64,000 nt of DNA from a phage. Positions 37,514-57,974 of this stretch are shown here, one piece after another. The number at the start of each line of letters is the position of its first letter. Position 1 is the stretch's first letter. Location of the stretch: the sequence record PZ452584.1. The stretch is one strand, 5' to 3'. The notes below the pieces were generated by a model that was given only the letters and a program-made list of their open reading frames with translations, searched no databases and was not told the DNA's origin. The position numbers and the translations under genes were made by a program.

Positions 37514-37702
37514 AAGTTTTCCATGGTAAAGGCAGTTTAGTTTTCTTTACTGTTAGTTCAATATCAGGATTCTTTTCTCTTAATTTAAGGCATTCCTCCC
37601 AAGCTCTGATTTCACTAGTGAATACACAAAATTGCCCATTACTAGTACCGACTAAACCACTATTTACAATAATAATAGCCCAAGTTTCATGATGCCACGC
37701 CA

Positions 37703-37703
<1 letters not shown>
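37506..37703 (-). CDS. Hypothetical protein (cd.5 position)
   Basis: 65 aa. Confidence 0.55.
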
Positions 37704-38906
<1,203 letters not shown>

Positions 38907-38910
<4 letters not shown>

Positions 38911-39137
38911 TTATTTTTCTCAACCAATGATTGAATATAATCATGCAGGTCTTTAGATGCTTTACCCCACTTATTTTGATATTCATTTTTAAGATTAGCC
39001 CGAGATTGAGCTAATAAAACATCATTAGTTGGAGGTAAAGATTCTAATCGTTGAATCTGACGTCCATAAATCATTGCAGCCATCTCAGATTCATAAATCA
39101 ATCCTTTGAGATGTTCAAATTGATGCCATGAAATCAT
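38907..39137 (-). CDS. Hypothetical protein
   Basis: 76 aa. Confidence 0.55.
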
Positions 39138-39433
39138 TTACATTTATCCTCTTTTAACTCTTGACGATAATAACATATCATAGTTTTTTGGTCATGTACA
39201 TATCGTTTTACATCATTAAGCCAAATACGAAATTCCTGGGAATCTTCAAATGGCATACCGACCCAAGCTTTACCATCAATAACTTTAACTTGCCAAGATA
39301 GTTTAGCTTCATCATATGACTTTATTTGTACAGGCCAATTAGGATGAACTGTTTCTTTCTTTACTTCTAGAGGCTTTGTCGAACAACCAACTAGAAGACC
39401 AATAGATAATATTACTGCCGATAGTTTAATCAT
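39134..39433 (-). CDS. Outer-membrane spanin (lipoprotein)
   Basis: 99 aa; signal peptide with lipobox LLVGC; adjacent to i-spanin candidate. Confidence 0.75.
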   Translation of the reverse strand: MIKLSAVILSIGLLVGCSTKPLEVKKETVHPNWPVQIKSYDEAKLSWQVKVIDGKAWVGMPFEDSQEFRIWLNDVKRYVHDQKTMICYYRQELKEDKCK

Positions 39434-39783
39434 TTAGAAAGGTCCTGGATGTCTTCTGCGAACTTGTTGAAGGAGTTGTTGATTTGTTTTTCAACCAATC
39501 CTGGCTTATGAGCCACCACATCCGCCTTCTTTGCATCTTTGCGCAGTTTTTCATTTTCACGCTCAATAGCAGCAATTGCCTCACGATTTTTATTATTCAT
39601 CGCATCAATATAATTATACTGAATTCGCAAATTATCTAATGCTAAAGCGTTTTCATTGGCTGTTTTTGTAATTTCAGTAACTGATGTTTCTAATCTTTCT
39701 ACCTTATTTTTTAAAATAATAGATGTTCCACCCAATGCTATTACAATTAATAGTAAACCTGCTGTCGTATTACTTAATTGCAT
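39430..39783 (-). CDS. Inner-membrane spanin (N-terminal TM, coiled coil)
   Basis: 117 aa; hydrophobic N-terminus then coiled-coil-like sequence. Confidence 0.75.
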   Translation of the reverse strand: MQLSNTTAGLLLIVIALGGTSIILKNKVERLETSVTEITKTANENALALDNLRIQYNYIDAMNNKNREAIAAIERENEKLRKDAKKADVVAHKPGLVEKQINNSFNKFAEDIQDLSK

Positions 39784-40280
39784 AAAGTTTTAATAACCTC
39801 TATAATATCGTCTTGAGAAAGACCGTTAATTAAAATATGATGTTCAGCTGGAGATTTAGAAATTTTAAAGCATGCCTCAACATCTTCTGCCATATCCGAT
39901 GCACTACGATTTGGATTACTAATTCCAAGACGATGCTTTCCAGTCAAAGGATTAACGATGATATAGCATTTGCAGCTATTGATATGAACATTGGGCTGAG
40001 TCTGATTAATGAACACTTCGCAATCATACTTAGCGAGTTGATTTTCTAAAAAGACTTTCATCTCTTCAACCGCATCAGGAAGCATATCACGGGCTTGCTC
40101 AAGACGACGATTTCGATATTCTTTAATGGTCGTTTTCCGCTTGACTTGCTTAGCTAAATCTTTCTTAAGATCGGTGATATATCCAACTCGACGATTTCCT
40201 TTGAATACAGAAATCCCATCTGTAGTATCACCGTATGCTTCAACGACCATTTCAGTAGTAATAAGCTGCAAATCCATCAT
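39774..40280 (-). CDS. alc: Alc, host transcription termination factor
   Basis: 168 aa; position between spanins and rnlA; early promoter cassette upstream. Confidence 0.85.
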   Translation of the reverse strand: MMDLQLITTEMVVEAYGDTTDGISVFKGNRRVGYITDLKKDLAKQVKRKTTIKEYRNRRLEQARDMLPDAVEEMKVFLENQLAKYDCEVFINQTQPNVHINSCKCYIIVNPLTGKHRLGISNPNRSASDMAEDVEACFKISKSPAEHHILINGLSQDDIIEVIKTLCN

Positions 40281-40284
40281 AAAG

Positions 40285-40338
40285 TCCTCATGTTATGTCA
40301 GTAAGACTACTATAACACAACACGAGGGACTTGTAAAC
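40285..40338 (-). repeat. 54-bp early promoter + leader cassette, copy 2
   Basis: Identical to 25628..25681. Confidence 0.9.
40309..40338 (-). promoter_or_regulatory. Early promoter for alc (second copy of cassette)
   Basis: Identical to promoter at 25652..25681. Confidence 0.7.
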
Positions 40339-40341
40339 AGC

Positions 40342-41929
<1,588 letters not shown>

Positions 41930-41956
41930 AATAAAATGGGCCTTGCGGCCCACTCC

Positions 41957-43135
41957 TTAAAAGTATTTTTTAAAACTCATCATAACTTTATCATCAACAT
42001 CATTATCAATCTGTGCAACAAGGTAAGATGACAGTTCTACTTCTTGTGGCGCGGATTGAACATTATCAGAATTAAGATATTCACGAATCCAAGGATATGG
42101 ATGTTTAACCGGAGCATCGGTAATTGGGCATGGAAGACCACACTGTTTCATACGAGATACAGTTAAGTAATCAATAAAGCTCCACATGCTATTTGTATTT
42201 AATCCAGGAACATCGCCATCTTTAAATAAATGAACTGCCCAATCTTTTTCTTGGCGGTTAACTTCCATGAAAATATCAACTGCTTCTTGTTCACACTCTT
42301 GAGCAATTTTAACCCATTCATCACCATCAGTGCCAAGTTGAAGTTGACGAATAATATATTGTGTGCCTTTAAGGTGAAGCTGTTCATCACGTGCAATGAA
42401 CTTCATAATCTTGGCATTACCTTCCATGATTTCCATGTTCTTATGGAAGTTAAAGGTACATGCGAAAGATACATAAAAACGAATAGCTTCCAATGCGTTG
42501 ATTACATGCAAACAGAGGTAAAGAGATTTCATTAAAGCACGTTTAGCTTCGGCTTCTTGTTTAATAGCTCTGTTTAAACGAAAGTCGGCATCAGGAGATT
42601 CTTTAGCTAGTTCTACAAATTCTTTAGCATTTTCCCATTCACGGGTTTTAATCAGAACATCATCATAATAACGTCCAATTGATTCAGCACGTTTCATAAT
42701 AGCTTCATCTAATACAATCTCATCAAATACCTTTGACGGATCAGTATAAAGATTTCGCATGATATGAGTATATGAACGACTATGAATAGTTTCACTAAAA
42801 GTCCATGTAGCAACCCATGTATCAAGGCTTGGGTCTGAAATTAATGACATAAGTACAGCAGACGGCGCACGACCCTGAATGCTATCCAAAAGTGATTGAT
42901 ACTTCAGATTATTAGTAAAAATATTCTGCTGATACTGAGGAAGCTTATTAAACTGTGCAGCATCCATCATTAAGTTTACTTCTTCCGGGCGCCAGAAAAA
43001 TGATAAGGACTTTTCTGTGAGTTCTTCAAATACTCGATGCCGTTGAATATCATAACGCGCAATACCAAGACCTGAACCAAAAAACATAGGTTCTTTTAAA
43101 ACATCAACTGGGTTTGTATTAAAAACTGTGCTCAT
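41957..43135 (-). CDS. nrdB: Ribonucleotide reductase beta subunit, uninterrupted
   Basis: 392 aa continuous ORF; no intron. Confidence 0.95.
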   Translation of the reverse strand: MSTVFNTNPVDVLKEPMFFGSGLGIARYDIQRHRVFEELTEKSLSFFWRPEEVNLMMDAAQFNKLPQYQQNIFTNNLKYQSLLDSIQGRAPSAVLMSLISDPSLDTWVATWTFSETIHSRSYTHIMRNLYTDPSKVFDEIVLDEAIMKRAESIGRYYDDVLIKTREWENAKEFVELAKESPDADFRLNRAIKQEAEAKRALMKSLYLCLHVINALEAIRFYVSFACTFNFHKNMEIMEGNAKIMKFIARDEQLHLKGTQYIIRQLQLGTDGDEWVKIAQECEQEAVDIFMEVNRQEKDWAVHLFKDGDVPGLNTNSMWSFIDYLTVSRMKQCGLPCPITDAPVKHPYPWIREYLNSDNVQSAPQEVELSSYLVAQIDNDVDDKVMMSFKKYF

Positions 43136-43186
43136 AAATTTTCCGCTTAGTTAATAGTTAGTGACTCGTCCGTGAGTCAAATTATA

Positions 43187-45451
43187 TCATAATTTACAGG
43201 ATGAACAATCTTCAGCTTTTGGAGTTTCTATTTCATAATCATCAGTACCAGAACCATCACGGGTATTATGATAATAGAAATTTTTAATGCCATAATACCA
43301 TCCGTATAGCATATCATCAATCATTATTGACATTGGAACCTTTCCTTTTGGAAAAATCTGTGGGTCATAATATGTATTCGCCGAAGCTGATTGACATACC
43401 CATTTCAGCATAATAGCTACCTGCGTAAGATAAGGTTTATTACCTTTCTTAGCTAATTTCCATGTATAATCATATAGGTCTATGTTATGTTCAATATTGG
43501 GCACGACTTGATTAAAGGAACCCTCTTTTGATTCTTTAACAGAGACTGGTCCACGTGGAGGCTCGATACCGTTTGTACTGTTAGAAACTTGGGAAGATGA
43601 CTCACATGGCATAAGTGCTGATAGTGTGCTATTACGGATGCCAAAGAGCTTAAGGTCTTCCCGCAGCGACGACCAGTCACAAACGTATTTTGGAGCTGCG
43701 ATTTGGTCAATCTTTTTATTGTACCAGTCGATAGGTAATTCGCCTCGAGACCAACGAGTGTCTGAATAATATTCGCAAGGTCCTTTTTCTTTGGCGAGCT
43801 TAATGGATGCTTTAATGAGTCCATACTGTAATCTCTCAAATAGTTCATGTGTTAAATCGTTAGCATCTTCATAAGAAGCAAAGTTACTTGCCAGCCAAGC
43901 TGCATAGTTAGTAACACCTACACCAAGGTTACGACGCTTTTTAGCTTTTTCTGCTTCAGGAACTGGATATCCTTGGTAATCCAAAAGATTATCAAGAGCA
44001 CGAACTTGAACTTCTGCCAATTCATTAATTTTATCTTGGTCTTGCCAATCGAAGTTATCCAACACAAATGCAGATAACGTGCACAATCCAATTTCAGCAT
44101 CAGGGCTATTCACATCATTTGTTGGAATAGCAATTTCACAACACAAGTTACTCTGACGAATAGGTGCCTTTTCACGAATAAACGGAGTATAGTTATTCGT
44201 ATTATCAATGAACTGCACATAAATCCTTGCTGTTCCTGAGCGTTCAGTCATGAGCAATTCAAATAGTTCACGGGCTTTAATACGCTTTTTACGAATATTA
44301 GGGTCTTTTTCTGCTGCTTCGTATAATTCACGGAAACGGTCTTGGTCTTTAAAATAAGAATAATAAAGCTCACCACCCATTTCATGCGGACTGAACAAAG
44401 TAATGTAATCATTCTTTCCGAATCGTTCCATCATCAAATCATTCAGCTGAACACCATAATCCATATGACGAATGCGGTTTTCTTCTACGCCTTTGTTATT
44501 TTTCAAAACGAGAAGATTTTCAACTTCCAAATGCCAAATAGGATAATAAGCAGTAGCAGCGCCGCCACGAATTCCACCCTGTGAACATGATTTAACTGCG
44601 GTCTGAAAATGTTTCCAAAAAGGAATAACACCAGTATGGCGTACTTCACCCATGCCAATCTTAGAACCTTCGGCACGAATCATACCAACGTTAATACCAA
44701 TTCCAGCGCGTTTAGAGATATATTCAACAATTGAAGCGGAAGCCTTATTGATAGACTTTAATGAATCACCTGCCTCAATAACAACGCATGAACTAAACTG
44801 TCGAGTCGGAGTACGACAACCAGCCATAATAGGAGTTGGCAATGAAATCTGTCGAGTAGATACTGCTTCATAAAAACGGATAACATGTTTTAATCTATCA
44901 ACAGGTTCATCTTGATGCAGTGCCATTCCAATAGTCATAAATGCAAACTGTGGAGTTTCATAAATTTGACCAGTGGTTTTATCTTTGACTAGATATTTTT
45001 CTTTTAATTGCATCGCCCCGGAATAAGTAAATTCCATATCCCGCTCGTGCTTAATTTTTGATTCTAAAAATGTAATTTCTTCTGCTGAATATTTTGACAA
45101 TAATTCAGGGTCATATTTACCTTCATTTACACAGTAAGAAATATGGTCAATAAATGAACGTGGTTCATACTGCCCATAAACATGCTTACGAAGAGCAAAC
45201 ATTAAACAGCGTGCAGCTACATATTGATAATCAGGTTCTTCAACCGAAATAGAATTCGCAGCGGCCTTAATGACAATAGTCTGAATATCATCAGTTGTCA
45301 TTCCATCACGGAGATATGATTTAATATTTTCATATAATTCATAAGGATCTACTGATGTTCCCTCAGCTGCCCAAGATAAAACTTTAATAATTTTTTGTGG
45401 ATCAAAGCTCTGAGAAACACCACTACTTTTGATAACATTAATTAATTGCAT
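43187..45451 (-). CDS. nrdA: Ribonucleotide reductase alpha subunit
   Basis: 754 aa; class I RNR large subunit. Confidence 0.96.
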   Translation of the reverse strand: MQLINVIKSSGVSQSFDPQKIIKVLSWAAEGTSVDPYELYENIKSYLRDGMTTDDIQTIVIKAAANSISVEEPDYQYVAARCLMFALRKHVYGQYEPRSFIDHISYCVNEGKYDPELLSKYSAEEITFLESKIKHERDMEFTYSGAMQLKEKYLVKDKTTGQIYETPQFAFMTIGMALHQDEPVDRLKHVIRFYEAVSTRQISLPTPIMAGCRTPTRQFSSCVVIEAGDSLKSINKASASIVEYISKRAGIGINVGMIRAEGSKIGMGEVRHTGVIPFWKHFQTAVKSCSQGGIRGGAATAYYPIWHLEVENLLVLKNNKGVEENRIRHMDYGVQLNDLMMERFGKNDYITLFSPHEMGGELYYSYFKDQDRFRELYEAAEKDPNIRKKRIKARELFELLMTERSGTARIYVQFIDNTNNYTPFIREKAPIRQSNLCCEIAIPTNDVNSPDAEIGLCTLSAFVLDNFDWQDQDKINELAEVQVRALDNLLDYQGYPVPEAEKAKKRRNLGVGVTNYAAWLASNFASYEDANDLTHELFERLQYGLIKASIKLAKEKGPCEYYSDTRWSRGELPIDWYNKKIDQIAAPKYVCDWSSLREDLKLFGIRNSTLSALMPCESSSQVSNSTNGIEPPRGPVSVKESKEGSFNQVVPNIEHNIDLYDYTWKLAKKGNKPYLTQVAIMLKWVCQSASANTYYDPQIFPKGKVPMSIMIDDMLYGWYYGIKNFYYHNTRDGSGTDDYEIETPKAEDCSSCKL

Positions 45452-45768
45452 AAGTCCTCAACTTGAAAATCGTCTTTAAACAATCGGTTAACTATATGAG
45501 CTATTATATCACCATGACACGGCTTTGGTTTACATGTGCATCCTAGCCTCATTCCACGTAAAGGCTCTAAATGTGCTTTAGTTATTTCTCCGGATTTAAT
45601 TCGACGTATAAAATCTTTTTTGAATAATTCAATGGCAGCCTCCCGGCTGCCAGCATCTTTACCGACGTAATTTCCCCAAAATGTACCACGGTGAATATTA
45701 ACATCAAAGTCGGATTTATATTTATTCACTACCTGGCATAGACGGCCCGCGCGGCGATAATTCGTCAT
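45442..45768 (-). CDS. Hypothetical Cys/His-motif protein
   Basis: 108 aa; [13 protein letters not shown] cluster. Confidence 0.6.
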
Positions 45769-45997
45769 ATTGTTTTTCCGTTAAAACAGTAATATCATAG
45801 TAACAATCTGAAGAAGTTTTAACTGTAGAAATTTTATTATCAAAATACTCACGAGTCATTTTATGAGTATAATATTTTTTGCCATAAATGATAATAGGCT
45901 GATTTGGTCCTGGAACTTCTAACTCGCTTGGATTAGGAAGTGTAAAAAGAACTACACCAGAAGTATCTTTAAATCGTAAAATCATATATCCTCGCAA
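45722..45997 (-). CDS. Hypothetical protein
   Basis: 91 aa; overlaps next ORF by 47 nt. Confidence 0.5.
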
Positions 45998-46008
45998 TTA
46001 AATTAAAA

Positions 46009-46869
46009 TTATACCGCCATTTTTCCTTTCAAGACACCGTAGGACTGATAATCTTTGAGAACGAAATCTTTAGGCCTGAGTTTAAGAACATATTCCAATT
46101 GTTCTTTAGTAGAAAGATAACGGAATTTATAAGGCAATCCGCCTATTACCAGTTCACAAAGCTCTTTAGGTTCACGACGCAAAATTTCTTTGCATTGTTC
46201 TACATGATTCATATAGATATGAGTATTACCACCAGAAAATATCAAATCTCCTGGAGTAAGATTACACATCTTAGCTATAATATGAACTAACGCAGCATAT
46301 GATGCAATATTAAATGGAAGGCCGAGAAAAACATCTACTGATCGTTGATACCACTGCAAATCCAAATAGCCATTACGCACATTAAACTGATAGAACATAT
46401 GACAAGGCGGTAATGCCATCTGCTTGATTTCAGCTGGATTCCATGCTGAAACGATTTGACGTCGATCAGTTGGTAATTTTTTAATACGATCAATAACTTC
46501 TACAATTTGGTCTACACCGCCAAAATCACGCCACTGTTTTCCATAAATTGGACCAAGTTCACCGCTATGGTATCCTAAATCTTTTGCTTGATTTTCGTAA
46601 TTTTCATCCCAGACTGTTTTGCCTTGGATTAACGAATCATGCTGAATTAATCGTAAATCATTGACATTTGTGCTTCCTGATAAAAACCATATTAACTCAG
46701 CAATGCAAGCTTTCCAAGCGAGCTTTTTAGTTGTTACCGCAGGAAAACCTTTAGTTAAATCCCAACGCAATTTAGTACCGAACAAAGCAATTGTTCCTGT
46801 GCCTGTTCGGTCATCGGTTTCATAACCATTTTCAAAAATGTCTTTAATTAAATCTTGGTATTGTTTCAT
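46009..46869 (-). CDS. td: Thymidylate synthase, uninterrupted
   Basis: 286 aa continuous; active-site LPPCH present; no intron. Confidence 0.95.
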   Translation of the reverse strand: MKQYQDLIKDIFENGYETDDRTGTGTIALFGTKLRWDLTKGFPAVTTKKLAWKACIAELIWFLSGSTNVNDLRLIQHDSLIQGKTVWDENYENQAKDLGYHSGELGPIYGKQWRDFGGVDQIVEVIDRIKKLPTDRRQIVSAWNPAEIKQMALPPCHMFYQFNVRNGYLDLQWYQRSVDVFLGLPFNIASYAALVHIIAKMCNLTPGDLIFSGGNTHIYMNHVEQCKEILRREPKELCELVIGGLPYKFRYLSTKEQLEYVLKLRPKDFVLKDYQSYGVLKGKMAV

Positions 46870-46914
46870 TTAGTACCTTATATAAATTATAATACATTTT
46901 ATGAAGCTAAATAA

Positions 46915-47274
46915 TCAATACGGTTTAGCATCAAATTTTCTCTCAATTTCAGGTGTGAAATATAATTCTTTACCGCGTTTGGAAAAGCGACCAATAATAT
47001 GATAATTATTCTCATCAAACGTAATATTACCAATATCCATAGCTTTCAACCAAATATCGATATTTCTATCCAGCTTTATGTCAAAATTCCAATACGGAGA
47101 ACTATTACCAAAAATACTACAAGCGGATTCAGTGAAACAGCTACTATAAATCTTGTCTTTAGGAACTACTAATTGATAGACACCTTTAATAAACTGAGGA
47201 CCTTGCCATTTTGGCTGTTTCGCGTCTTTTTCTAATAGAATAGGATAATAATTAAAATTCATATTTTCCGCCAC
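46915..47274 (-). CDS. Hypothetical protein inserted between frd and td
   Basis: 119 aa ORF; not expected between frd and td in T4. Confidence 0.6.
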   Translation of the reverse strand: MAENMNFNYYPILLEKDAKQPKWQGPQFIKGVYQLVVPKDKIYSSCFTESACSIFGNSSPYWNFDIKLDRNIDIWLKAMDIGNITFDENNYHIIGRFSKRGKELYFTPEIERKFDAKPY

Positions 47275-47282
47275 GCGTTATT

Positions 47283-47867
<585 letters not shown>

Positions 47868-48110
47868 TCAAAACCCCCTTTCAATAAACCATTCAGTGGC
47901 TTTATTAGCATCAAAGAATAATTCTTCATATGTCTTTTCTTTGTTTTCAAAAACTGTCACACAAACACGTTGACATTCTCCACAGTATTCTTCTGACATA
48001 CTTAAAGCGTCAGAAAACATTTCTTTAAATTCATTTAAATCAGGATTATGCAATGCGTTAAAAATTGCATAATCAAATTCATCATTCATAAATTCAAATA
48101 CAAAAATCAT
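47868..48110 (-). CDS. Hypothetical protein
   Basis: 80 aa. Confidence 0.55.
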   Translation of the reverse strand: MIFVFEFMNDEFDYAIFNALHNPDLNEFKEMFSDALSMSEEYCGECQRVCVTVFENKEKTYEELFFDANKATEWFIERGF

Positions 48111-48120
48111 ATTGTTTTCC

Positions 48121-48363
48121 TTAAACAGACTTTTTCACAATTTTCCAATCAGCTTTAAACTGCTCGACGTCAGAGTGATGAATCCAGAAACCAGATGAGC
48201 TACCATCTTCATAAAGAGGACAACCATCGCACTCATCTTTCCAACCCATCGCGCATAAAGTTTCTTCAGCTTTTTCCAGAGCTTCTGGATTGTTACCCTG
48301 GATTGTAAAGTACCATTTGCCTTTAACTTCTGAATCTTTGATGCTCTCACGTTGTAATTTCAT
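48121..48363 (-). CDS. Hypothetical protein
   Basis: 80 aa; overlapping alternative-frame ORF 48135..48350 disregarded. Confidence 0.55.
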   Translation of the reverse strand: MKLQRESIKDSEVKGKWYFTIQGNNPEALEKAEETLCAMGWKDECDGCPLYEDGSSSGFWIHHSDVEQFKADWKIVKKSV

Positions 48364-48440
48364 TTTATTCTCCAGTGTTTTAGTTGTTAACTCAGTATGG
48401 GACCATTATGTCATAGCCCCATTTGGTTGTACACTACTTT

Positions 48441-48812
48441 TTACTGAATATTAAAAGTTGCTTTAATCAGTGCAATGACTTCTGCCGCATTTTTATGATT
48501 TACCTGCACATGAATGGTTTGGGTATCAATATCAGGAGCATCGCCATCAACTTCCAGGAAGTGACAGAATTCCCATTCAGCGAGTTCAAAGTACTCGTCA
48601 GCATTATCATAAACAGACTTCAGGATGGTGCCATCTTTCATTTCAACTTTTTCGACAAAATAATCACCGTCGATATAACACATGTCCAGGACTTTAAAGG
48701 AACTGCCATGTTGTTCCATAATCTTAATCATGCGCGAATTGTTATCAGGACTACCAGCGATGAATTGTTTTTTGGCAGCAGGGTCTAATACGTAAAATTT
48801 ACCAATTTCCAT
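48441..48812 (-). CDS. Hypothetical protein, paralogue of 48871..49251
   Basis: Start at ATG 48812 (GAGGA SD); early promoter at 48842-48871. Confidence 0.6.
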   Translation of the reverse strand: MEIGKFYVLDPAAKKQFIAGSPDNNSRMIKIMEQHGSSFKVLDMCYIDGDYFVEKVEMKDGTILKSVYDNADEYFELAEWEFCHFLEVDGDAPDIDTQTIHVQVNHKNAAEVIALIKATFNIQ

Positions 48813-48841
48813 TTTATTTTCCTCATGTAGTTGATAGGGTA

Positions 48842-48871
48842 ATAGTATCACACTACTACCCTACTGTAAAC
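48842..48871 (-). promoter_or_regulatory. Early promoter candidate (GTTTACA-17-TACTAT)
   Basis: Consensus-like elements 25 nt upstream of ORF start 48812. Confidence 0.55.
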
Positions 48872-49251
48872 TACTTTTTGAAAGTTTTTCGCAAAAGTTC
48901 AATGATTTCATCTACATTGTTTTCATCTACAATGCAGTGAATTTTTGTTACGCCAGAAACCTTGTCTTTGACTTCAACTTCTTCAGAAGTCGGTTCTTTA
49001 TACTCACGAAAACAATGAAATTCGTCTTCGCAAATTTCTAAAAGTCTATCTTTGAGGTAAAAATGCTTTCCATTTGCGCATTCAATGTGTTTTACTGCTT
49101 TATATCCATTAGCGACGGAAACTTCTTTAACTTCAAACCATCCGCCATTATCTCGAATCGCTTTAACTATTGATGAATTAGAACGTGGGCTATAATTAAT
49201 AAATGTATCAATAAGTCTTGGAACAAGCTCATACTTTTTACCGGTATACAT
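48871..49251 (-). CDS. Hypothetical protein, paralogue of 48441..48812
   Basis: 126 aa; shared pattern with neighbour. Confidence 0.6.
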   Translation of the reverse strand: MYTGKKYELVPRLIDTFINYSPRSNSSIVKAIRDNGGWFEVKEVSVANGYKAVKHIECANGKHFYLKDRLLEICEDEFHCFREYKEPTSEEVEVKDKVSGVTKIHCIVDENNVDEIIELLRKTFKK

Positions 49252-49296
49252 TACGTTTTCCTCATTTTAATAGGGGCTGTAATAGCCCCTCGATAA

Positions 49297-49527
49297 TTAT
49301 TGTTCAATCAGTCCCATGTAAAATTCTGCGTCTTCAGAATCCATGCCATCACAATATTCATTAGCCATAAAGCGGGTAAGGTCTTCAAGAGGACCTTCAA
49401 TGACAATAGAAAAATTGCAATAATTGGGATCATCATGAATACTTGTGATACTAAGTTCAGGATAACGATTACGAATAATTTCTTCGATATATTCAAAATC
49501 AACGATGTCAATATCAACTTTAGCCAT
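49297..49527 (-). CDS. Hypothetical acidic protein
   Basis: Start at MAKVDIDIV with GAGGA SD; early promoter 49571-49600. Confidence 0.55.
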
Positions 49528-49570
49528 ATTATTTTCCTCTTTAATCATCAGCAGTATTGCCGATAGTTGT

Positions 49571-49600
49571 ATAGTACCATGGAAGAACAGGGATGTAAAC
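49571..49600 (-). promoter_or_regulatory. Early promoter candidate (GTTTACA-17-TACTAT)
   Basis: Consensus-like elements upstream of ORF 49297..49527. Confidence 0.55.
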
Positions 49601-49633
49601 CGTTTTGTGAAAAAATTTTAAAATAAAAAAAGG

Positions 49634-49651
49634 GACCTCTAGGGTCCCCGA
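49634..49651 (-). terminator. Intrinsic terminator after gene 32
   Basis: GGGACC-CTAGA-GGTCCC followed by U-run on minus strand; coordinates approximate. Confidence 0.6.
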
Positions 49652-49671
49652 TTAATTAGTAATATAATCTA

Positions 49672-50580
49672 TTAAAGGTCATTCAAAAGGTCATCCAGGT
49701 CCGTGTCATCAGCACTAGATGAACTGCCAGAGCTTGAGCTCATAAAATCATCTTCAGTTTTTGTATTGAAGTCATCAACATTGAATGCATCCAAATCATC
49801 AGCAACTTTATCAGCTTTCTTAGCAGCAGTTGCAGCGGCACCGCCCATCACAGCAGTTCCCATAACTTGACCGAATTTAGTATTCAGTTCTTCAAACGAT
49901 TTGAATTTATCTTTAGAAGTCATTTCAGAAAGGTCAACCATTTGTTCGAACAGTTCTTTCTGGAAAGATTCATCGTCAATGTTTGGAATCGCAGATTGAT
50001 TCAGGAATTTAGATTCGTCGTAGTTACTAAATCCGGAAACTTGTTTAACTTTCAGTACAAAGTTAGCACCTTCCCACGGACAAGTTACATCAACCGGAGT
50101 TTCACCCATTTCAACATCAACTGCAATCATTGCGTTGATTTTATCCCAGATTTTCTTACCGAAACGGTATTTAAATACTTTACCTTCATTTTCTGGAGCA
50201 GCTGGGTCTTTTACTACAAGAATGTTAGCCCAGTAAGAAGTTTTACGTTTAACAAGACCGTACTCTTTATTGTCAGTGTTGTACAAATCATTTTTACTGA
50301 TGTACTGACATACTGGGCAAGAATCGTAATCACCATGGGTAGATGAACATGTTTCAATATACCATTTACCATTTTTCTTGAAACCGTGATTTACAAGAAT
50401 TGCGAATGGTGCTTGTTCATCATTTTTAGACGGAAGAAAACGAATTACTGCTTGACCGTTACCCGCATTATCGAGTTTCAGTTTCCACTCGCCTTTATCT
50501 TCAGAAGAAAAACCACCTTTATTTCCAGCCAGTTTAGCCATTTGTGCAGCGAGTTCAGCAGTAGATTTACGTTTAAACAT
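49672..50580 (-). CDS. 32: Single-stranded DNA-binding protein gp32
   Basis: 302 aa; acidic Ser-rich C-terminus; characteristic AU-rich leader. Confidence 0.97.
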
Positions 50581-50663
50581 TTTTATTTCCTTTTTAATTT
50601 AATTAACAGTTGGTGCTATGACGATGTATGACCTCATAGCTGGTCAGTGAGATAATTATAATC
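50581..50663 (-). promoter_or_regulatory. Gene 32 mRNA leader / autoregulatory translational operator
   Basis: AU-rich UUAAAUUAAAAAGGAAAUAAAAAUG immediately 5' of gene 32. Confidence 0.7.
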
Positions 50664-50671
50664 TATTTATA
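50664..50671 (-). promoter_or_regulatory. Late promoter TATAAATA upstream of gene 32
   Basis: Exact motif on minus strand. Confidence 0.55.
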
Positions 50672-50679
50672 ATAAGCAA

Positions 50680-51333
50680 TTAATACTTGCAAGATTTCAC
50701 AGTTTCAATGAAAACACTTTTAGCTTTCTGTGAATCAATATTTAAAATTTTTCTATAAGCTTTTAACTTTATAGAATAATTATTCCAAACTAAATTATCA
50801 GTCTGTTCATCATGTTTATCAATTATATTTAAAAACGAATCAAGTAAGATAAACGTCTCAAACGAAATTATATTCGATTGAAGCAGTTTAAAAATATAAC
50901 TTGACTGAACTTTTGGATTATATTCAAAGATTTCTTTAAAAGCAGAAACTTCAACTTTCTTACTAAAATAATAAATGTTGCGAATATCTTCTTCAAACTT
51001 AAATTTAATTTGCTTTAAGCGTCCGATATATTCACGATAAAACACAAGTGCATCAGCGTCAGAGATGTCACCAATCCAAGCATCTTGGTTAGCAACAAGA
51101 TTGCTTATAAAGATTAAAGCAAGTTCCTTTAATTTATATTTTTCTGATAACTTCTGGAAAAAATACTTATCCCTTCGCTTTTGATAAGCGGCATCAGACA
51201 CCCGCATGCACCAATTATACTTAATTACATCATACTTTCCATTCATATGCTGTTTTATCATTAAGTATAATTTATAAACTGATTTACCATCAATGTATCT
51301 TTCACCACCAGCAGGCATGCGGAGTTTAATCAT
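50680..51333 (-). CDS. 59: Helicase loader gp59
   Basis: 217 aa as in T4. Confidence 0.93.
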   Translation of the reverse strand: MIKLRMPAGGERYIDGKSVYKLYLMIKQHMNGKYDVIKYNWCMRVSDAAYQKRRDKYFFQKLSEKYKLKELALIFISNLVANQDAWIGDISDADALVFYREYIGRLKQIKFKFEEDIRNIYYFSKKVEVSAFKEIFEYNPKVQSSYIFKLLQSNIISFETFILLDSFLNIIDKHDEQTDNLVWNNYSIKLKAYRKILNIDSQKAKSVFIETVKSCKY

Positions 51334-51668
51334 AGCAGAAAATCTAATGTATTAGTTTTTTCACAACGAACAACAGAAGGACGTAAAAGATTTTCGTCAA
51401 TAGCTTCTGACTGAATTTTTTCAATTATACCCGAAGGAATAAATTTAGCAAATTGAGTTTCAGGAATAGAGTTTTCTTCCAAGAATGCTGTTGTAGCTTC
51501 AAGATAACTCATTCCAAACTCTTCTACCATTTTTTCAATAATAAATCCATTTTCTTGACGATCAAGAAGCTTTGCTATTTCATCCTTTTCTTTCTTAATT
51601 GAAAGTTCTTTTTCTGAAAGACCGGTCTCATCGACCGGACGAATATCATTTAGAGAAAACTGTGTCAT
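51330..51668 (-). CDS. 33: Late transcription co-activator gp33
   Basis: 112 aa from MTQFSLND. Confidence 0.9.
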   Translation of the reverse strand: MTQFSLNDIRPVDETGLSEKELSIKKEKDEIAKLLDRQENGFIIEKMVEEFGMSYLEATTAFLEENSIPETQFAKFIPSGIIEKIQSEAIDENLLRPSVVRCEKTNTLDFLL

Positions 51669-51915
51669 AAAGTTCAACTACCTCTTCAGTTTCAGCTTCA
51701 AACACATCACGATTATCTTTATGATACAAAGCTAATAGACGATTAAACATCTTACCATCAACGCCAAGTTCATCTTTAGCACGAATTCGAATATCTTTAA
51801 TCAGTTCATTATAACCGGAAATTTTCAGTTTATGATCAGATGCTTCTTTAATAAATTTAGCCAAGTCTTCGCCATGGATAGCTTCATCAAATTCAACCAT
51901 TTCTTTTTTAGCCAT
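51646..51915 (-). CDS. dsbA: DsbA double-stranded DNA-binding protein
   Basis: 89 aa; T4 order. Confidence 0.88.
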   Translation of the reverse strand: MAKKEMVEFDEAIHGEDLAKFIKEASDHKLKISGYNELIKDIRIRAKDELGVDGKMFNRLLALYHKDNRDVFEAETEEVVELYDTVFSK

Positions 51916-51923
51916 TATTCACC

Positions 51924-52841
51924 TCAAAATTCATTAATGCTATTAGTTAATTTAGAAAGACCCGCTTTTACAAAATATGAATAAATTTTGCCACGCGGTG
52001 GTAATTTATATGAATTATAGTAATTCACAATGTTTGAAGCAATATTATCAGGAATATAATCAAAATCAATTAGAACTAAATTTTCTTTATAACGATTATA
52101 TTCAGATTCTGTGAGAAGCACCTTAGCTTGCTCACGGTCATTAGCAATAGCTTCAACGATTGAAGTTTTCATTGAAGGAGTTCGTTCACCTTCAACTCTG
52201 GTAAACCAAAAGTCAGATCGTACTTTAACTGAAGCAACGTTATCCTTTTTGTCGCCTTTAAGGATTTTAGTCATACAGTCAATTTCAGCAGAACCGCTTT
52301 TAATTTTAACCCATTTCTTGTGCATCGGTGACCATTGCTTAACATTTGGGTATTTGTGAAGCTGTGTAAAGTCACCATCCGATGAAATGATTAAAATCTT
52401 ATGTCCTTCTAAAGAGAACTTTTTAACAAGAACAGCAATGTGGTCATCTGCTTCATACTTATCAATATCCATAACAATGTATGGCATATAAGCTTTCAAT
52501 TCATCTATAACTTTATGACTGGATTCAAAATAACCTTCCCAGTCCCAAGTAGATTCTTCTCGTGCTTTTCCACGGTTTTTCTTATAATAATACGCGAAAT
52601 CACGACGCCAGTATCCAGATTTCGCATTATCAATACACAGTACAATTTTAGTGTATCCAAGCGTTTTTGCTTTTTTGACATTAAACTTAATTGAGTTCAA
52701 TATCAAATGACGAACCATTGATAAATTAATTTTTTCTTTATCTGGGAAGTTTACTAAAGCAGTTGAAAGCGCAATTTGACTAAAGTCAATAAAGCAAATT
52801 CCTTCTTTGTAATCTTCATCCAGCATCATTTCTAAATCCAT
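51924..52841 (-). CDS. rnh: RNase H (5'-3' exonuclease / flap endonuclease)
   Basis: 305 aa from MDLEMML; track start 52856 is a possible alternative. Confidence 0.92.
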   Translation of the reverse strand: MDLEMMLDEDYKEGICFIDFSQIALSTALVNFPDKEKINLSMVRHLILNSIKFNVKKAKTLGYTKIVLCIDNAKSGYWRRDFAYYYKKNRGKAREESTWDWEGYFESSHKVIDELKAYMPYIVMDIDKYEADDHIAVLVKKFSLEGHKILIISSDGDFTQLHKYPNVKQWSPMHKKWVKIKSGSAEIDCMTKILKGDKKDNVASVKVRSDFWFTRVEGERTPSMKTSIVEAIANDREQAKVLLTESEYNRYKENLVLIDFDYIPDNIASNIVNYYNSYKLPPRGKIYSYFVKAGLSKLTNSINEF

Positions 52842-52870
52842 ATGAACCTCGTTCAATTAGTGAGATTTCT

Positions 52871-52900
52871 ATTATATACCATCCAAATCTTAAAGTAAAC
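52871..52900 (-). promoter_or_regulatory. Early promoter for rnh (GTTTACT-17-TATAAT)
   Basis: Perfect -10, GTTTAC-type -35. Confidence 0.6.
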
Positions 52901-52903
52901 AAG

Positions 52904-52911
52904 TATAAATA
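52904..52911 (+). promoter_or_regulatory. Late promoter TATAAATA for gene 34
   Basis: Exact motif 35 nt before ATG. Confidence 0.75.
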
Positions 52912-52945
52912 CTTATTATTGAAAACACAATAGGAGCCCGGGAGA

Positions 52946-55900
52946 ATGGCCGAGATTAAAAGAAAGTTCAGAGCAGAAGACGGTCTGGACGCAGGTGGTG
53001 ATAAAATAATCAACGTAGCTTTAGCTGATCGTGCCGTAGGAACTGACGGTGTTAACGTTGATTACTTAATTCAAGAAAACACAGTTCAACAATACGATCC
53101 AACTCGTGGATATTTAAAAGATTTTGTAATCATTTATGATAACCGCTTTTGGGCTGCTATAAATGATATTCCGAAACCAGCAGGAGCTTTTAATAGCGTA
53201 CGCTGGAGAGCATTACGTACTGATGCAAACTGGACAACTGTTTCATCAGGACCTTATCAATTAAAGTCAGGCGAATCAATTTCAGTTGATACTGCAGCCG
53301 GTAATGACATTACATTTACTTTACCATCTACCCCAATTGACGGTGATACTATCGTTCTCCAAGATATTGGAGGAAAACCTGGAGTTAATCAAGTTTTAAT
53401 TACAGCTCCGGTACAAAGCATTGTAAATTTTAGAGGTCAGCAAGTACGTTCAGTACTAATGACTCATCCAAAATCACAGATAGTTTTAATTTTTAGTAAT
53501 CGTCTGTGGCAAATGTATGTCGCTGATTATAGTAGAGAAGCTGTAGTTGTAACGCCTGCGAGTCTCTATCAGGCTCAATCAAACGATTTTATCGTACGTA
53601 GATTTACTTCTGCTGCACCAATTAATGTTAAACTTCCAAGATTTGCTAATCATGGCGATATTATTAATTTCGTTGATTTAGATAAATTAAATCCTCTTTA
53701 TCACACAATTGTTACTACATATGATGAAACAACTTCAGTACAAGAAGTTGGAACTCATTCCATTGAAGGTCGTACATCGATTGACGGTTTCTTGATGTTT
53801 GATGATAATGAGAAATTGTGGAGATTGTTTGACGGGGATAGTAAAGCGCGTTTACGCATTATAACGACTAATTCTAATATTCGTCCAAATGAAGAAGTTA
53901 TGGTATTTGGTGCGAATAACGGAACAGCTCAGACAATTGAACTTCAGCTTCCGACTGATATTTCTGTTGGTGATACTGTCAAAATTTCCATGAATTACAT
54001 GAGAAAAGGACAAACGGTTAAAATCAAAGCTGCAGGTGAAGATAAAATTGCTTCTTCAGTTCAATTGCTGCAATTCCCAAAACGCTCAGAATATCCACCT
54101 GAAGCTGAGTGGGTTACAGTTCAAGAATTAGTTTTTAACGGTGAAACTAATTATGTTCCAGTTTTGGAGCTTGCTTATATTGAAGATTCTGATGGAAAAT
54201 ATTGGGTTGTACAGCAAAACGTTCCAACTGTAGAAAGAGTAGATTCTTTAAATGATTCTACTAGAGCAAGATTAGGGGTAATTGCTTTAGCTACGCAAGC
54301 TCAAGCTAATGCTGATTTAGAAAATTCTCCACAAAAAGAATTGGCAATTACTCCAGAAACGTTAGCTAATCGTACTGCTACAGAAACTCGTAGAGGTATT
54401 GCAAGAATAGCAACTACTGCTCAAGTTAACCAGGATACTACATTCTCTTTTGCTGATGACCTTATCATTACTCCTAAAAAGCTGAATGAAAGAACGGCTA
54501 CTGAAACTCGTAGAGGTATTGCTGAAATTGCTACACAGCAAGAAACTAATACAGGAACCGATGATACTACAATCATTACTCCTAAAAAGCTTCAAGCTCG
54601 TCAAGGTTCTGAATCATTATCTGGTATTGTAACCTTTGTATCTACTGCAGGTGCTACTCCAGCTTCTAGCCGTGAATTAAATGGTACGAATGTTTATAAT
54701 AAAAACACTAATAATTTAGTTGTTTCGCCTAAAGCTTTGGATCAGTATAAAGCTACTCCAACGCAGCAAGGTGCAGTAATTTTAGCAGTTGAAAGTGAAG
54801 TAATTGCTGGACAAAGTCAGGAAGGATGGGCAAATGCTGTTGTAACGCCAGAAACGTTACATAAAAAGACATCAACTGATGCAAGAATTGGTTTAATTGA
54901 AATTGCTACACAAAGTGAAGTTAATACAGGAACTGACTATACACGTGCAGTCACTCCTAAAACTTTAAATGACCGTAGAGCAACTGAAAGTTTAAGTGGT
55001 ATAGCTGAAATTGCTACGCAAGTTGAATTCGACGCAGGCGTCGACGATACTCGTATCTCTACACCATTAAAAATTAAAACCAGATTTAATAGTACTGATC
55101 GTACTTCTGTTGTTGCTCTATCTGGATTAGTTGAATCAGGAACTCTCTGGGACCATTATACACTTAATATTCTTGAAGCAAATGAGACACAGCGTGGTAC
55201 ACTTCGTGTAGCTACACAGGTCGAAGCTGCTGCAGGAACACTAGATAATGTTTTAATAACTCCTAAAAAGCTTTTAGGTACTAAATCTACCGAATCGCAA
55301 GAAGGTGTTATTAAAGTTGCAACTCAGTCTGAAGCTGTGGCTGGAACGTCAGCAAATACTGCTATATCTCCAAAAAATTTAAAATGGATTGTGCAGAGTG
55401 AACCTACCTGGGCAGCTACTACTGCGATAAGAGGTTTTGTTAAAACTTCATCTGGTTCAATTACATTCGTTGGTAATGATACAGTCGGTTCTACTCAAGA
55501 TTTAGAACTGTATGAGAAAAATAGCTATGCAGTATCACCATATGAATTAAACCGTGTATTAGCAAATTATCTGCCGTTAAAAGCAAAAGCTGTAGATAGT
55601 AATTTATTGGATGGTCTAGATTCATCTCAGTTCATTCGTAGGGATATTGCACAGACGGTTAATGGTTCACTAACCTTAACCCAACAAACGAATCTGAGTG
55701 CCCCTCTTGTATCATCTAGTACTGGTGAATTTGGTGGTTCATTGGCCGCTAATAGAACATTTACCATCCGTAATACAGGAGCCCCGACCAGTATCGTTTT
55801 CGAAAAAGGTCCTGCATCTGGGGCAAATCCTGCACAGTCAATGAGTATTCGTGTATGGGGTAACCAATTTGGCGACGGTAGTGATACAACACGTTCTACT

Positions 55901-56815
55901 GTATTTGAAGTTGGCGATGATACATCTTATCACTTTTATTCTCAACGTAATAAAGATGGTAATATAGCGTTTAGCATTAATGGTACTGTAATGCCAATAA
56001 ATGTTAATGCTTCAGGAACATTGAATGCAAATGGTGTAGCAACATTTGGTAATTCAGTCACTGCAACTGGTGAAATTATTTCTCGAAGCGCAAATGCTTT
56101 CCGTGCTATTAACGGAAATTATGGTTTCATTGTTCGCAATGATGGATCAGTAACGAATTTTATGCTTACTGCATCGGGTGATCAGACTGGCGGATTTAAT
56201 GGATTGCGTCCTTTAGCTATCAATAATGCATCTGGTCAAGTAACGATTGGTGAAAGCTTAATTATTGCCAAAGGTGCTACTATAAATTCAGGCGGTTTGA
56301 CTGTTAACTCGAGAATTCGTTCTCAGGGTACTAAAACATCTGATTTATACACCCGCGCTCCAACATCTGATACAGTAGGATTCTGGTCAATTGATATTAA
56401 CGATTCAGCCACTTATAATCAATTCCCTGGTTATTTTAAAATGGTTGAAAAAACTAATGAAGTGACTGGACTTCCATACTTAGAACGTGGTGAAGAGGTT
56501 AAATCTCCTGGTACACTGACTCAGTTTGGTAACACACTTGATTCGCTTTACCAAGATTGGATTACTTATCCAACAACACCAGAAGCGCGCACCACTCGCT
56601 GGACACGTACATGGCAGAAAACCAAAAACTCTTGGTCAAGTTTTGTTCAGGTATTTGACGGAGGTAACCCTCCTCAGCCATCTGATATCGGTGCTTTACC
56701 ATCTGATAATGCTATAATGGGTAATCTTACTATTCGTGATTTCTTACGAATTGGTAATGTTCGCATTATTCCTGACCCAGTGAATAAAACTGTTAAATTT
56801 GAATGGGTTGAATAA
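52946..56815 (+). CDS. 34: Long tail fiber proximal subunit
   Basis: 1289 aa; late promoter at 52904; internal ~38-aa repeats. Confidence 0.96.
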   Translation: MAEIKRKFRAEDGLDAGGDKIINVALADRAVGTDGVNVDYLIQENTVQQYDPTRGYLKDFVIIYDNRFWAAINDIPKPAGAFNSVRWRALRTDANWTTVSSGPYQLKSGESISVDTAAGNDITFTLPSTPIDGDTIVLQDIGGKPGVNQVLITAPVQSIVNFRGQQVRSVLMTHPKSQIVLIFSNRLWQMYVADYSREAVVVTPASLYQAQSNDFIVRRFTSAAPINVKLPRFANHGDIINFVDLDKLNPLYHTIVTTYDETTSVQEVGTHSIEGRTSIDGFLMFDDNEKLWRLFDGDSKARLRIITTNSNIRPNEEVMVFGANNGTAQTIELQLPTDISVGDTVKISMNYMRKGQTVKIKAAGEDKIASSVQLLQFPKRSEYPPEAEWVTVQELVFNGETNYVPVLELAYIEDSDGKYWVVQQNVPTVERVDSLNDSTRARLGVIALATQAQANADLENSPQKELAITPETLANRTATETRRGIARIATTAQVNQDTTFSFADDLIITPKKLNERTATETRRGIAEIATQQETNTGTDDTTIITPKKLQARQGSESLSGIVTFVSTAGATPASSRELNGTNVYNKNTNNLVVSPKALDQYKATPTQQGAVILAVESEVIAGQSQEGWANAVVTPETLHKKTSTDARIGLIEIATQSEVNTGTDYTRAVTPKTLNDRRATESLSGIAEIATQVEFDAGVDDTRISTPLKIKTRFNSTDRTSVVALSGLVESGTLWDHYTLNILEANETQRGTLRVATQVEAAAGTLDNVLITPKKLLGTKSTESQEGVIKVATQSEAVAGTSANTAISPKNLKWIVQSEPTWAATTAIRGFVKTSSGSITFVGNDTVGSTQDLELYEKNSYAVSPYELNRVLANYLPLKAKAVDSNLLDGLDSSQFIRRDIAQTVNGSLTLTQQTNLSAPLVSSSTGEFGGSLAANRTFTIRNTGAPTSIVFEKGPASGANPAQSMSIRVWGNQFGDGSDTTRSTVFEVGDDTSYHFYSQRNKDGNIAFSINGTVMPINVNASGTLNANGVATFGNSVTATGEIISRSANAFRAINGNYGFIVRNDGSVTNFMLTASGDQTGGFNGLRPLAINNASGQVTIGESLIIAKGATINSGGLTVNSRIRSQGTKTSDLYTRAPTSDTVGFWSIDINDSATYNQFPGYFKMVEKTNEVTGLPYLERGEEVKSPGTLTQFGNTLDSLYQDWITYPTTPEARTTRWTRTWQKTKNSWSSFVQVFDGGNPPQPSDIGALPSDNAIMGNLTIRDFLRIGNVRIIPDPVNKTVKFEWVE

Positions 56816-56823
56816 GAGGTATT

Positions 56824-57942
56824 ATGGAAAAATTTATGGCAGAGTTTGGACAAGGATATGTCCAAACGCCATTTTTATCGGAAAGCAATTCAGTAAGATA
56901 CAAAATAAGTATAGCGGGTTCTTGCCCGCTTTCTACTGCAGGACCACCATATGTTAAATTTCAGGATAATCCTGTAGGAAGTCAAACATTTAGCGCAGGC
57001 CTTCATTTAAGAGTTTTTGACCCTTCCACCGGAGCATTAGTTGATAGTAAGTCATATGCTTTTTCGACTTCAAATGATACTACATCTGCTGCCTTTGTTA
57101 GTTTCATGAATTCTATTTCAAGCAATAGACTTGTTGCTATATTAACTAACGGAAAGGTTAATTTTCCTCCTGAAGTACTATCTTGGTTAAGAACAGCAGG
57201 AACGTCTGCTTTTCCATCTGACTCTGTATTGTTAAGATTTGATGTATCATATGCTGCTTTTTACACTTCTTCTAAAAGAGCTATTGCATTAGAGCATGTT
57301 AAATTAAGTAATAGAAAAAGCACAGATGATTATCAAACTATTTTAGATGTTGTATTTGACAGTTTAGAAGACGTTGGAGCTACCGGGTTTCCAAGAAGAA
57401 CATATGAAAGCGTTGAGCAATTCATGTCAGCAGTTGGTGGAACTAATAACGAAATTGCGCGTCTACCAACTTCATCCGCGATAAGTAAACTTTCTGACTA
57501 CAATTTAATTCCTGGTGATGTGCTTTATCTTAAAGCACAACTATATGCTGATGCAGATTTACTCGCTCTTGGAACTACGAATATATCTATTAGATTTTAT
57601 AATGAATCGGATGGATATATTTCTTCAACACACGCTGAGTTTACTGGTCAAGCTGGGTCATGGGAATTAAAGGAAGACTATGTAGTTGTTCCTGAAAATG
57701 CAGTAGGATTTACGATATATGCACAAAGAACTGCACAAGCAGGTCAAGGTGGCATGAGGAATTTAAGTTTTTCTGAAGTATCAAGAAATGGCGGAATTTC
57801 AAAACCTGCAGAATTTGGCGTCAATGGTATTCGAGTTAATTATGTCTGTGAATCTGCTTCACCTCCAGATATAATGGTACTTCCTACACAAGCATCGTCT
57901 AAAACTGGTAAAGTGTTTGGACAAGAATTTAGAGAAGTATAA
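56824..57942 (+). CDS. 35: Long tail fiber hinge connector
   Basis: 372 aa. Confidence 0.92.
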   Translation: MEKFMAEFGQGYVQTPFLSESNSVRYKISIAGSCPLSTAGPPYVKFQDNPVGSQTFSAGLHLRVFDPSTGALVDSKSYAFSTSNDTTSAAFVSFMNSISSNRLVAILTNGKVNFPPEVLSWLRTAGTSAFPSDSVLLRFDVSYAAFYTSSKRAIALEHVKLSNRKSTDDYQTILDVVFDSLEDVGATGFPRRTYESVEQFMSAVGGTNNEIARLPTSSAISKLSDYNLIPGDVLYLKAQLYADADLLALGTTNISIRFYNESDGYISSTHAEFTGQAGSWELKEDYVVVPENAVGFTIYAQRTAQAGQGGMRNLSFSEVSRNGGISKPAEFGVNGIRVNYVCESASPPDIMVLPTQASSKTGKVFGQEFREV

Positions 57943-57947
57943 ATTGA

Positions 57948-57965
57948 GGGAGCCTTCGGGTTCCC
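57948..57965 (+). terminator. Hairpin after gene 35
   Basis: GGGAGCC-TTCG-GGTTCCC then T-run. Confidence 0.7.
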
Positions 57966-57974
57966 TTTTTTCTT

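Follow-up and report, generated by a model that had tools for sequence, protein, structure and literature searches.

Introduction

The patchy distribution of group I introns and of the free-standing seg and mob endonuclease genes in T-even phages is textbook knowledge, and so is the use of T2 and other endonuclease-poor phages as homing recipients (PMC2988022, PMC2993671, PMC2790892). The number of homing-endonuclease genes ranges from 15 in T4 and 11 in T6 to one in T2 and none in RB26 and RB69 (Petrov et al., 2010, Table 5; PMC2993671), and published reviews already treat T4 as an outlier. In co-infections of T4 and T2, the T4 endonucleases cut T2 DNA, and the ensuing repair copies in T4 elements together with flanking markers (PMC2790892, PMC2988022). 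T2, for instance, has neither mobE nor the nrdB intron and gains both from T4 (PMC2790892). Here, we describe the thymidylate synthase gene td, the ribonucleotide reductase gene nrdB and the other sites of homing elements in a 64,000-nucleotide (nt) stretch of the phage record PZ452584.1, referred to as the window in the following.

We assign the source of the window to the genus Tequatrovirus, as a mosaic T4-like coliphage. For the T4 reference (NC_000866), four annotated stretches were joined and then aligned to the window by blastn; the counterpart of the window is T4 96,672-161,397, which has the same orientation and, over most of its length, an identity of 94-98%. A megablast search against 50,697 phage records returned about 500 Tequatrovirus genomes that span the td-nrdB region, with ESh30, MLP2, HP3 and AR1 as the top matches, 97% identity at best and no identical record. 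In IMG/VR, the exact td junction sequence was found in a single contig, which at 95.5% identity belongs to a different phage. All negative results reported below refer to this 64-kb window; the other nine T4 endonuclease sites, among them that of the nrdD intron, fall outside it, and the phage may carry homing-endonuclease genes elsewhere in its genome.

Within these bounds, the window is free of every homing-endonuclease element that T4 carries between ~96.7 and 161.4 kb, and its td and nrdB genes need no splicing. We consider it very probable that the window carries alleles with empty sites of the T2/AR1 type at td-nrdA-nrdB-denA, 23/24, inh/uvsW and 32/59, the commonest state among its relatives.

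td and nrdB are continuous genes with empty intron sites

The two genes and their intron insertion sites are located as follows (a slash marks the insertion point):
46009-46869, minus strand: td, thymidylate synthase, 286 amino acids (aa), an uninterrupted open reading frame (ORF)
46320/46321, minus strand: empty td intron insertion site, GGC/CTT
41957-43135, minus strand: nrdB, ribonucleotide reductase small subunit, 392 aa, an uninterrupted ORF
42459/42460, minus strand: empty nrdB intron insertion site, GCAT/GTACC

The td protein is full length (Pfam Thymidylat_synt, E = 1.3e-94, residues 2-286), and in a global alignment to the T4 td locus its gene is collinear with exon 1 (94.5% identity) and exon 2 (90.5%). 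Gene positions 1-548/549 correspond to T4 exon 1 and the remainder to exon 2, and the two blocks abut exactly in the window, where the junction alignments read TTTTTCTCGGC directly followed by CTTCCATTTAATATT. The T4 td intron (~1.0 kb; 1017 nt by RefSeq coordinates) is precisely absent, and it is at this very GGC/CTT position that the td introns of T4, T6 and HP3 are inserted. Likewise, the nrdB protein is full length (phrog_86, E = 4.5e-154) and its gene is collinear with the T4 exons in a global alignment, with the 598-nt T4 intron precisely absent; exon 2 is 97.8% identical to that of T4 and the final 89 nt of exon 1 are 86.5% identical. A blastn comparison of the window with T4 gave no match to either the td intron (T4 143548-144564) or the nrdB intron (138458-139055). 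As both genes are continuous ORFs of a length equal to the spliced product, there is no room for a hidden intron. The first-pass annotation of this DNA, which was made from the letters alone, had described td and nrdB as intron-less and had proposed an alignment to the T4 exon junctions as a check; in this alignment the exons line up exactly, and the description stands for both genes. NrdB is longer than its T4 counterpart (392 versus 388 aa) because of a 12-nt net indel within a hypervariable stretch, and not because of intron remains.

We gave no weight to a scan of the window with Rfam at the gathering thresholds, which came back empty but also missed the td and nrdB introns of T4 itself. 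In the T4 control (positions 12000-21000 of one of the T4 stretches), these group I introns probably go undetected since their endonuclease ORFs split the model. Negative Rfam results on ORF-containing phage introns are thus not to be trusted.

The hypervariable segment of NrdB covers residues ~172-205 (window ~42520-42620, minus strand) between flanks of 94-98% identity, and it occurs in three alleles in the phages compared: one in the window and HP3, one in AR1 and T2 (both 392 aa) and one in T4 and T6 (388 aa). It sits between the MobE nick site and the intron site and may therefore mark boundaries of recombination or co-conversion.

Sites of free-standing endonuclease genes and the search for nucleases

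Synteny with T4 in the blastn alignment shows six clean absences: segD, segE, the nrdB intron with I-TevIII, nrdB.1 together with mobE, the td intron with I-TevI, and segG. Four of them concern spacers between genes, given here with the corresponding gap in the alignment:
9837-9919, strand not assigned: gene 23-24 spacer (segD in T4), 83 nt; gap at 9847-9908, 60 nt versus 789 in T4
15214-15263, strand not assigned: inh-uvsW spacer (segE in T4), 50 nt; gap at 15250-15270, 19 nt versus 635 in T4
43136-43186, minus strand: nrdA-nrdB spacer (nrdB.1 and mobE in T4), 51 nt; gap at 43135-43191, 55 nt versus 700 in T4
50581-50679, minus strand: gene 59-32 spacer (segG in T4), 99 nt; gap at 50643-50679, 35 nt versus about 620 in T4

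With lengths of 83, 50, 51 and 99 nt, these spacers are too short for an ORF. In particular, nrdB comes after nrdA with no gene between them, and the nrdA-nrdB spacer has nearly the same sequence as in T2 and AR1. It shows no terminator-like hairpin, in keeping with the description of mobE-less phages (PMC2790892), and a scan of 41400-47400 for sigma-70 promoters and terminators gave counts at the level of the shuffled background.

Searches for nucleases elsewhere in the window agree with this picture. When the 15 seg, mob and I-Tev proteins of T4 were compared with it by tblastn, the best E-value was 0.015, and the best matches of I-TevI (E = 4.7) and I-TevIII (E = 0.32) both lay at unrelated positions. 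The overall best match, of SegF at 29394-29059 (25% identity), was dismissed as a chance similarity, lying inside an alt gene that is collinear with T4 alt at 95.6%. Profiles for GIY-YIG and HNH, derived from the T4 proteins, turned up nothing in the 876 six-frame ORFs, the best match being DenA itself (E = 0.19):
41519-41953, minus strand: denA, endonuclease II, downstream of nrdB as in T4

DenA is 99.3% identical to T4 DenA over 144 aa (tblastn) and is matched by Pfam GIY-YIG (E = 5.4e-6; 27.1 bits at a cutoff of 22.6) and by phrog_1111 'endonuclease' (E = 2.2e-65). Judged by this homology, it is the orthologue of T4 endonuclease II, a degrader of host DNA, and not a homing endonuclease. The segments of the window that are absent from T4, namely a second Alt paralogue, ORFs of 100, 119 and 80 aa, a second FRD2 paralogue and the T2-type gp37/gp38, were each checked, and none matched a nuclease family in Pfam, PHROGs or NCBIfam. 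The first-pass annotation had reported no seg or mob ORF at inh-uvsW or 32-59 and had named DenA as the only GIY-YIG protein. Synteny, tblastn and profiles bear out the former and extend it to 23-24 and nrdA-nrdB; the latter holds throughout the window by tblastn, six-frame profiles and Pfam.

The 119-aa ORF between frd and td (46915-47274, minus strand) was considered as a novel free-standing endonuclease and rejected. It has no Pfam, NCBIfam or PDB match, its sole match being phrog_1928 of unknown function. Since it lacks any nuclease match and is also found in T2, T6, AR1 and HP3, we do not count it as a homing-endonuclease gene. In T4, frd and td overlap directly at this place.

Empty sites are the majority state among sequenced relatives

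The first-pass annotation had implied that empty sites are rare, an impression that database counts show to be wrong. Probes of 150 nt centred on each junction were queried against the 50,697 phage records. Counted per record, with GenBank/RefSeq duplicates and other genera included, the share of matching records that are uninterrupted is ~70-78% per junction. It comprises 716 of 1024 records for td (201 have the full T4-type intron), 1215 of 1549 for nrdB (118 have the nrdB intron), 594 of 766 for nrdA-nrdB, 443 of 613 for 32-59 and 519 of 745 for inh-uvsW, a junction at which 473 records are at least 99% identical to the window; at td, the uninterrupted class takes in short ORF-less introns such as those of UPWr_E2 and 236Ecol005PP, as pieces less than 575 nt apart were joined. 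Empty sites are thus the majority state among the sequenced relatives, and T4 is the exception.

Exon sequence at the td insertion site

To relate the window to other td genes, 28 alleles were sampled from the loci already compared, from rank-spread database matches and from IMG/VR; 11 of these bear an intron and 17 do not. Exon 1 ends with CTTGGGT in ten of the eleven intron-bearing alleles, and the eleventh, from Mosigvirus F27, has CTTAGGT. This heptamer occurs in 0 of the 17 intron-less alleles, which end with TCTCGGC (the window, AR1 and JB75), TCTTGGT (T2), CCTCGGT, CTTGGGA, CTTGGGC or CTTAGGT.

According to a fold that is illustrative only, CTTGGGT forms the exon strand of the helix between the 5' exon and the internal guide sequence. 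When the exon end was folded with the 5' end of the intron, the expected pairing was seen with the T4 exon and a shifted one with the window exon, at z-scores that were not significant. The TCTCGGC of the window alters four of the seven CTTGGGT positions, including the U of the conserved U-G wobble at the 5' splice site. As the I-TevI cut lies 23-25 nt before the insertion site, the CTTGGGT stretch is always co-converted with the intron, and the simplest reading is that it travels with the intron. The exon end of the window, of a type seen only in intron-less alleles, hence speaks against a recent precise intron loss, and its empty td site most likely represents an allele that either escaped invasion altogether or has long since been rid of the intron. 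With its junctions, the window contributes a further data point on how the presence of an intron is associated with the exon sequence that pairs with it.

The td gene of F27, in which the exon end CTTAGGT is followed by TAATTTAGG at the intron start (CTTGGGT and TAATTGAGG in T4), carries an intron that is about 90% identical to that of T4, and thus shows a variant 5' exon/intron context in another genus.

Target sites and alternative explanations

The first-pass annotation had also proposed that this phage is a natural recipient for invading elements. Two of the features that bear on this are the following:
46343-46347, minus strand: CAACG, the cleavage motif of I-TevI, which would place the cut in the top strand 23 nt upstream of the td insertion site
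42986-43022, minus strand: nrdB region (nt 114-150) in which MobE nicks T2, with codon 42, AAG, at 43010-43012, followed by the FFWRPEE block

I-TevI recognizes 5'-CNNNG-3', natively CAACG, of which C1 and G5 are required (PMC5009752), and cuts 23/25 nt upstream of the insertion site (PMC2988022). In the td gene of the window, both the motif, with C1 and G5 intact, and the spacing are present. At codon 42 of nrdB, AAG is shared by the window, T2, AR1 and HP3, with CGG in T4 and AAA in T6; AAG is the codon nicked in T2 and is reported in all mobE-less phages, and a two-part target has been proposed for MobE (PMC2790892). The window thus has all that is described for a MobE recipient: codon 42 AAG, the block encoding FFWRPEE and no mobE upstream (PMC2790892). 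At the nrdB intron site, positions -5 and -2 are its only differences from the proven intron-deleted T4 substrate in the stretch -30..+40. I-TevIII cuts 14 and 16 bp upstream of the site (PMC1865063); these cut positions correspond to about 42474-42476 and are unchanged from that substrate. Gene 32, the target gene of SegG, matches T2 at 42-50 of every 50 nt. Given that the features of all four targets are retained (CAACG, MobE codon 42, the nrdB site, and gene 32 with its upstream spacer), the susceptibility of these loci to homing is rated as likely from their sequence. A recipient role is also plausible because T2, the phage that classically receives the elements when crossed with T4, shares this architecture.

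If the phage shared a host cell with a relative that bears such endonucleases (T4, T6 or RB3, for instance), these loci of the window would probably serve as recipients for homing. The td gene would be cut by I-TevI at CAAC/G, 23-25 nt ahead of the insertion site. In nrdB, MobE would nick codon 42, and an I-TevIII of the RB3 type would cut 14-16 nt upstream of the insertion site; gene 32 would be cut by SegG. As the double-strand breaks are repaired on the donor template, the intron or endonuclease gene would be copied in along with donor sequence that flanks it.

Besides the composition of the junction counts, several observations at the target sites weigh against empty alleles that are ordinary and open to invasion. 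Of the 14 td positions that surround the insertion site, six (-7, -6, -4, -1, +3 and +6) are different in the window and in intron-deleted T4. All six differences are synonymous, and their clustering within 14 nt is unexpected in permutations that preserve codon position (P = 0.0004 for this site; P = 0.024 when stretches of this kind anywhere in the gene are considered). Even from T2, a proven recipient, the window differs at -4 and -1 within the ~20-bp binding region of I-TevI, and in the polymorphic block of the MobE region its EKSLS is nearer to HP3 and T6 than to T2 (EKQLS). These differences invite the idea that the empty sites are resistant, or 'immune', alleles, whose synonymous changes in the recognition regions make the phage a poor recipient, which would also help to explain why the intron-less state persists despite super-Mendelian homing. 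The absence of the intron-linked CTTGGGT from all 17 sampled intron-less td alleles would fit this idea, as would the view that mobE-bearing phages are self-protected by polymorphism in nrdB nt 114-131 (PMC2790892). We nonetheless regard it as unlikely. C1, G5 and the spacing of the CAACG motif are intact, homing endonucleases such as I-TevI reportedly tolerate multiple nucleotide substitutions in their targets (PMC5009752), and T2, which shares four of the six td differences and has another substitution at -4, was nevertheless invaded in T4 x T2 crosses (PMC2790892). Moreover, codon 42 of the window's nrdB is the very AAG nicked in T2, and the CTTGGGT link is explained more simply by co-conversion and by the exon's need to pair with the intron. 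The broader version of this idea, in which selection for weaker I-TevI binding, or for a failure to splice after incomplete co-conversion, makes the intron-less td alleles a standing 'immunity' polymorphism, seems to us just as improbable; if true, it could help to explain why ~70% of sequenced td genes remain uninvaded in the face of such homing.

A recent precise deletion of the introns and endonuclease genes, such as recombination with a spliced cDNA or an intron-less relative might bring about, would account for absences that are exact to the nucleotide relative to T4. It would also accord with changes of intron status between near relatives, as HP3, MLP2 and ESh30, which are ~97% identical to the window, carry a 320-nt ORF-less td intron. 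However, precise loss would leave CTTGGGT behind, and the window instead has TCTCGGC in common with the intron-less AR1 and JB75. In addition, its spacers match those of T2/AR1 nearly base for base, as expected from ordinary recombination of whole empty-site alleles and not from independent deletions. We therefore consider such a deletion highly improbable, and favor empty-site alleles of the T2/AR1 type as the explanation. In practical terms, the phage could be of modest value as a recipient in homing or marker-exclusion crosses.

Other features of the window

The genes between nrdB and td, which lie in the same order as in T4, are the following:
43187-45451, minus strand: nrdA, ribonucleotide reductase large subunit, 754 aa; 96.2% nt identity to T4 140420-143546
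45442-45768, minus strand: nrdA.1, as in T4
45722-45997, minus strand: nrdA.2, as in T4

The latter two match Pfam DUF4326 and DUF5496 and are collinear with T4 at 96% identity. Further along the region, a 100-aa ORF between pseT and pseT.1 (38608-38910, minus strand) matches phrog_2364; it is absent in T4, and T6 and T2 have ORFs in the corresponding place. Next to frd.2 lies a second paralogue of the FRD2 family (48441-48851, minus strand), and the 80-aa ORF likewise lies downstream of frd.

Hoc (12817-14523, minus strand) comprises 568 aa versus 376 aa in T4, with several Ig/PKD domains by Pfam. The T4 alignment reveals an additional repeat unit of ~300 nt (13666-13971 matches T4 110748-111053 again), and the window Hoc is thus an expanded capsid-decoration protein. 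Two tandem full-length genes at 25681-27738 and 27742-29838 (minus strand) encode Alt-type ADP-ribosyltransferases of 685 and 698 aa, each with a match to Pfam ADPrib_exo_Tox. In T4, a single alt gene is accompanied by alt.-1 and alt.-2, degenerate remnants that are described in the T4 annotation as an old duplication. The window further encodes gp37 (58680-61988, plus strand; 1102 aa), which ends with a Peptidase_S74 intramolecular chaperone domain, and gp38 (62008-62793, plus strand; 261 aa). The latter is Gly-rich and matches Pfam GP38 (E = 2.6e-69), which marks it as an adhesin of the T2 type, as opposed to the T4-type assembly chaperone.

Comparison with known phages

T4 (NC_000866) has the same genes in the same order at 94-98% identity over most of the window, but carries segD, segE, an nrdB intron with a defective I-TevIII, nrdB.1, mobE, the td intron with I-TevI, and segG. 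It also lacks the frd-td ORF and has a T4-type gp38 and a shorter Hoc.

The first-pass annotation had spoken of a 'T2/T6-like' backbone, and only the first half of this label can be kept. T6 (AP018814) does share the empty 32-59 junction, the continuous nrdB and the td-frd ORF with the window. However, its td contains a 1016-nt intron encoding I-TevI (with GIY-YIG, zinc-finger and DNA-binding domains), a gene for a 213-aa HNH/NUMOD3 endonuclease is located at nrdA-nrdB, its NrdB is of the 388-aa T4-type allele, and its endonuclease genes number 11 in total (PMC2993671).

HP3, MLP2 and ESh30, the top-scoring matches at about 97%, have the same NrdB allele, nrdA-nrdB spacer and td-frd ORF as the window, but differ in their 320-nt td group I intron, which is devoid of the I-TevI ORF and follows the exon end CTTGGGT. 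This ORF-less intron (positions 6423-6736 of the HP3 locus compared; also in MLP2, ESh30, UPWr_E2 and 236Ecol005PP) matches the two ends of the T4 intron at 98% identity, and standard annotation splits the td genes that contain it into two 'thymidylate synthase' coding sequences.

The intron-less phages AR1 (AP011113) and JB75 (MH355584) agree with the window in architecture, with the same gene order, continuous td and nrdB genes and an identical td site, TCTCGGC/CTTCCA. AR1, which is collinear with the window over 8.2 kb at 96.6% identity, also has td and nrdB genes of 861 and 1179 nt, a distance of 51 nt between nrdA and nrdB and the small td-frd ORF, and the td junction of JB75 is 99.3% identical. 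AR1 differs in its T2-type NrdB variable segment and in an extra ORF, ar1_245, downstream of frd.

Finally, T2 (AP018813) is collinear with the window over 37670-48373 (10.7 kb, 94.5% identity) and 48810-58653. It has a continuous 861-nt td and a 1179-nt (392-aa) nrdB, a 51-nt nrdA-nrdB spacer, the small extra td-frd ORF, a T2-type gp38 adhesin and no seg, mob or I-Tev genes in the region from rnlA to gene 36, and its 99-nt 59-32 spacer (compared with T2 only) is identical in sequence. On the other hand, nucleotide identity in these comparisons is only 92-95%, the NrdB hypervariable allele is another one, positions -4 and -1 of the td site differ, and the extra FRD2 paralogue is present in the window. 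From this collinearity and the shared gp38 type, the backbone can be classed as T2-type. With an identity to T2 of only about 92-97%, the window belongs to a distinct mosaic phage and not to T2 itself. The intron-free T2/AR1-type arrangement is already documented, so that there is nothing new in the arrangement as such; the window matters little beyond correct annotation, and takes its place beside T2 and AR1 as one more example of this type.

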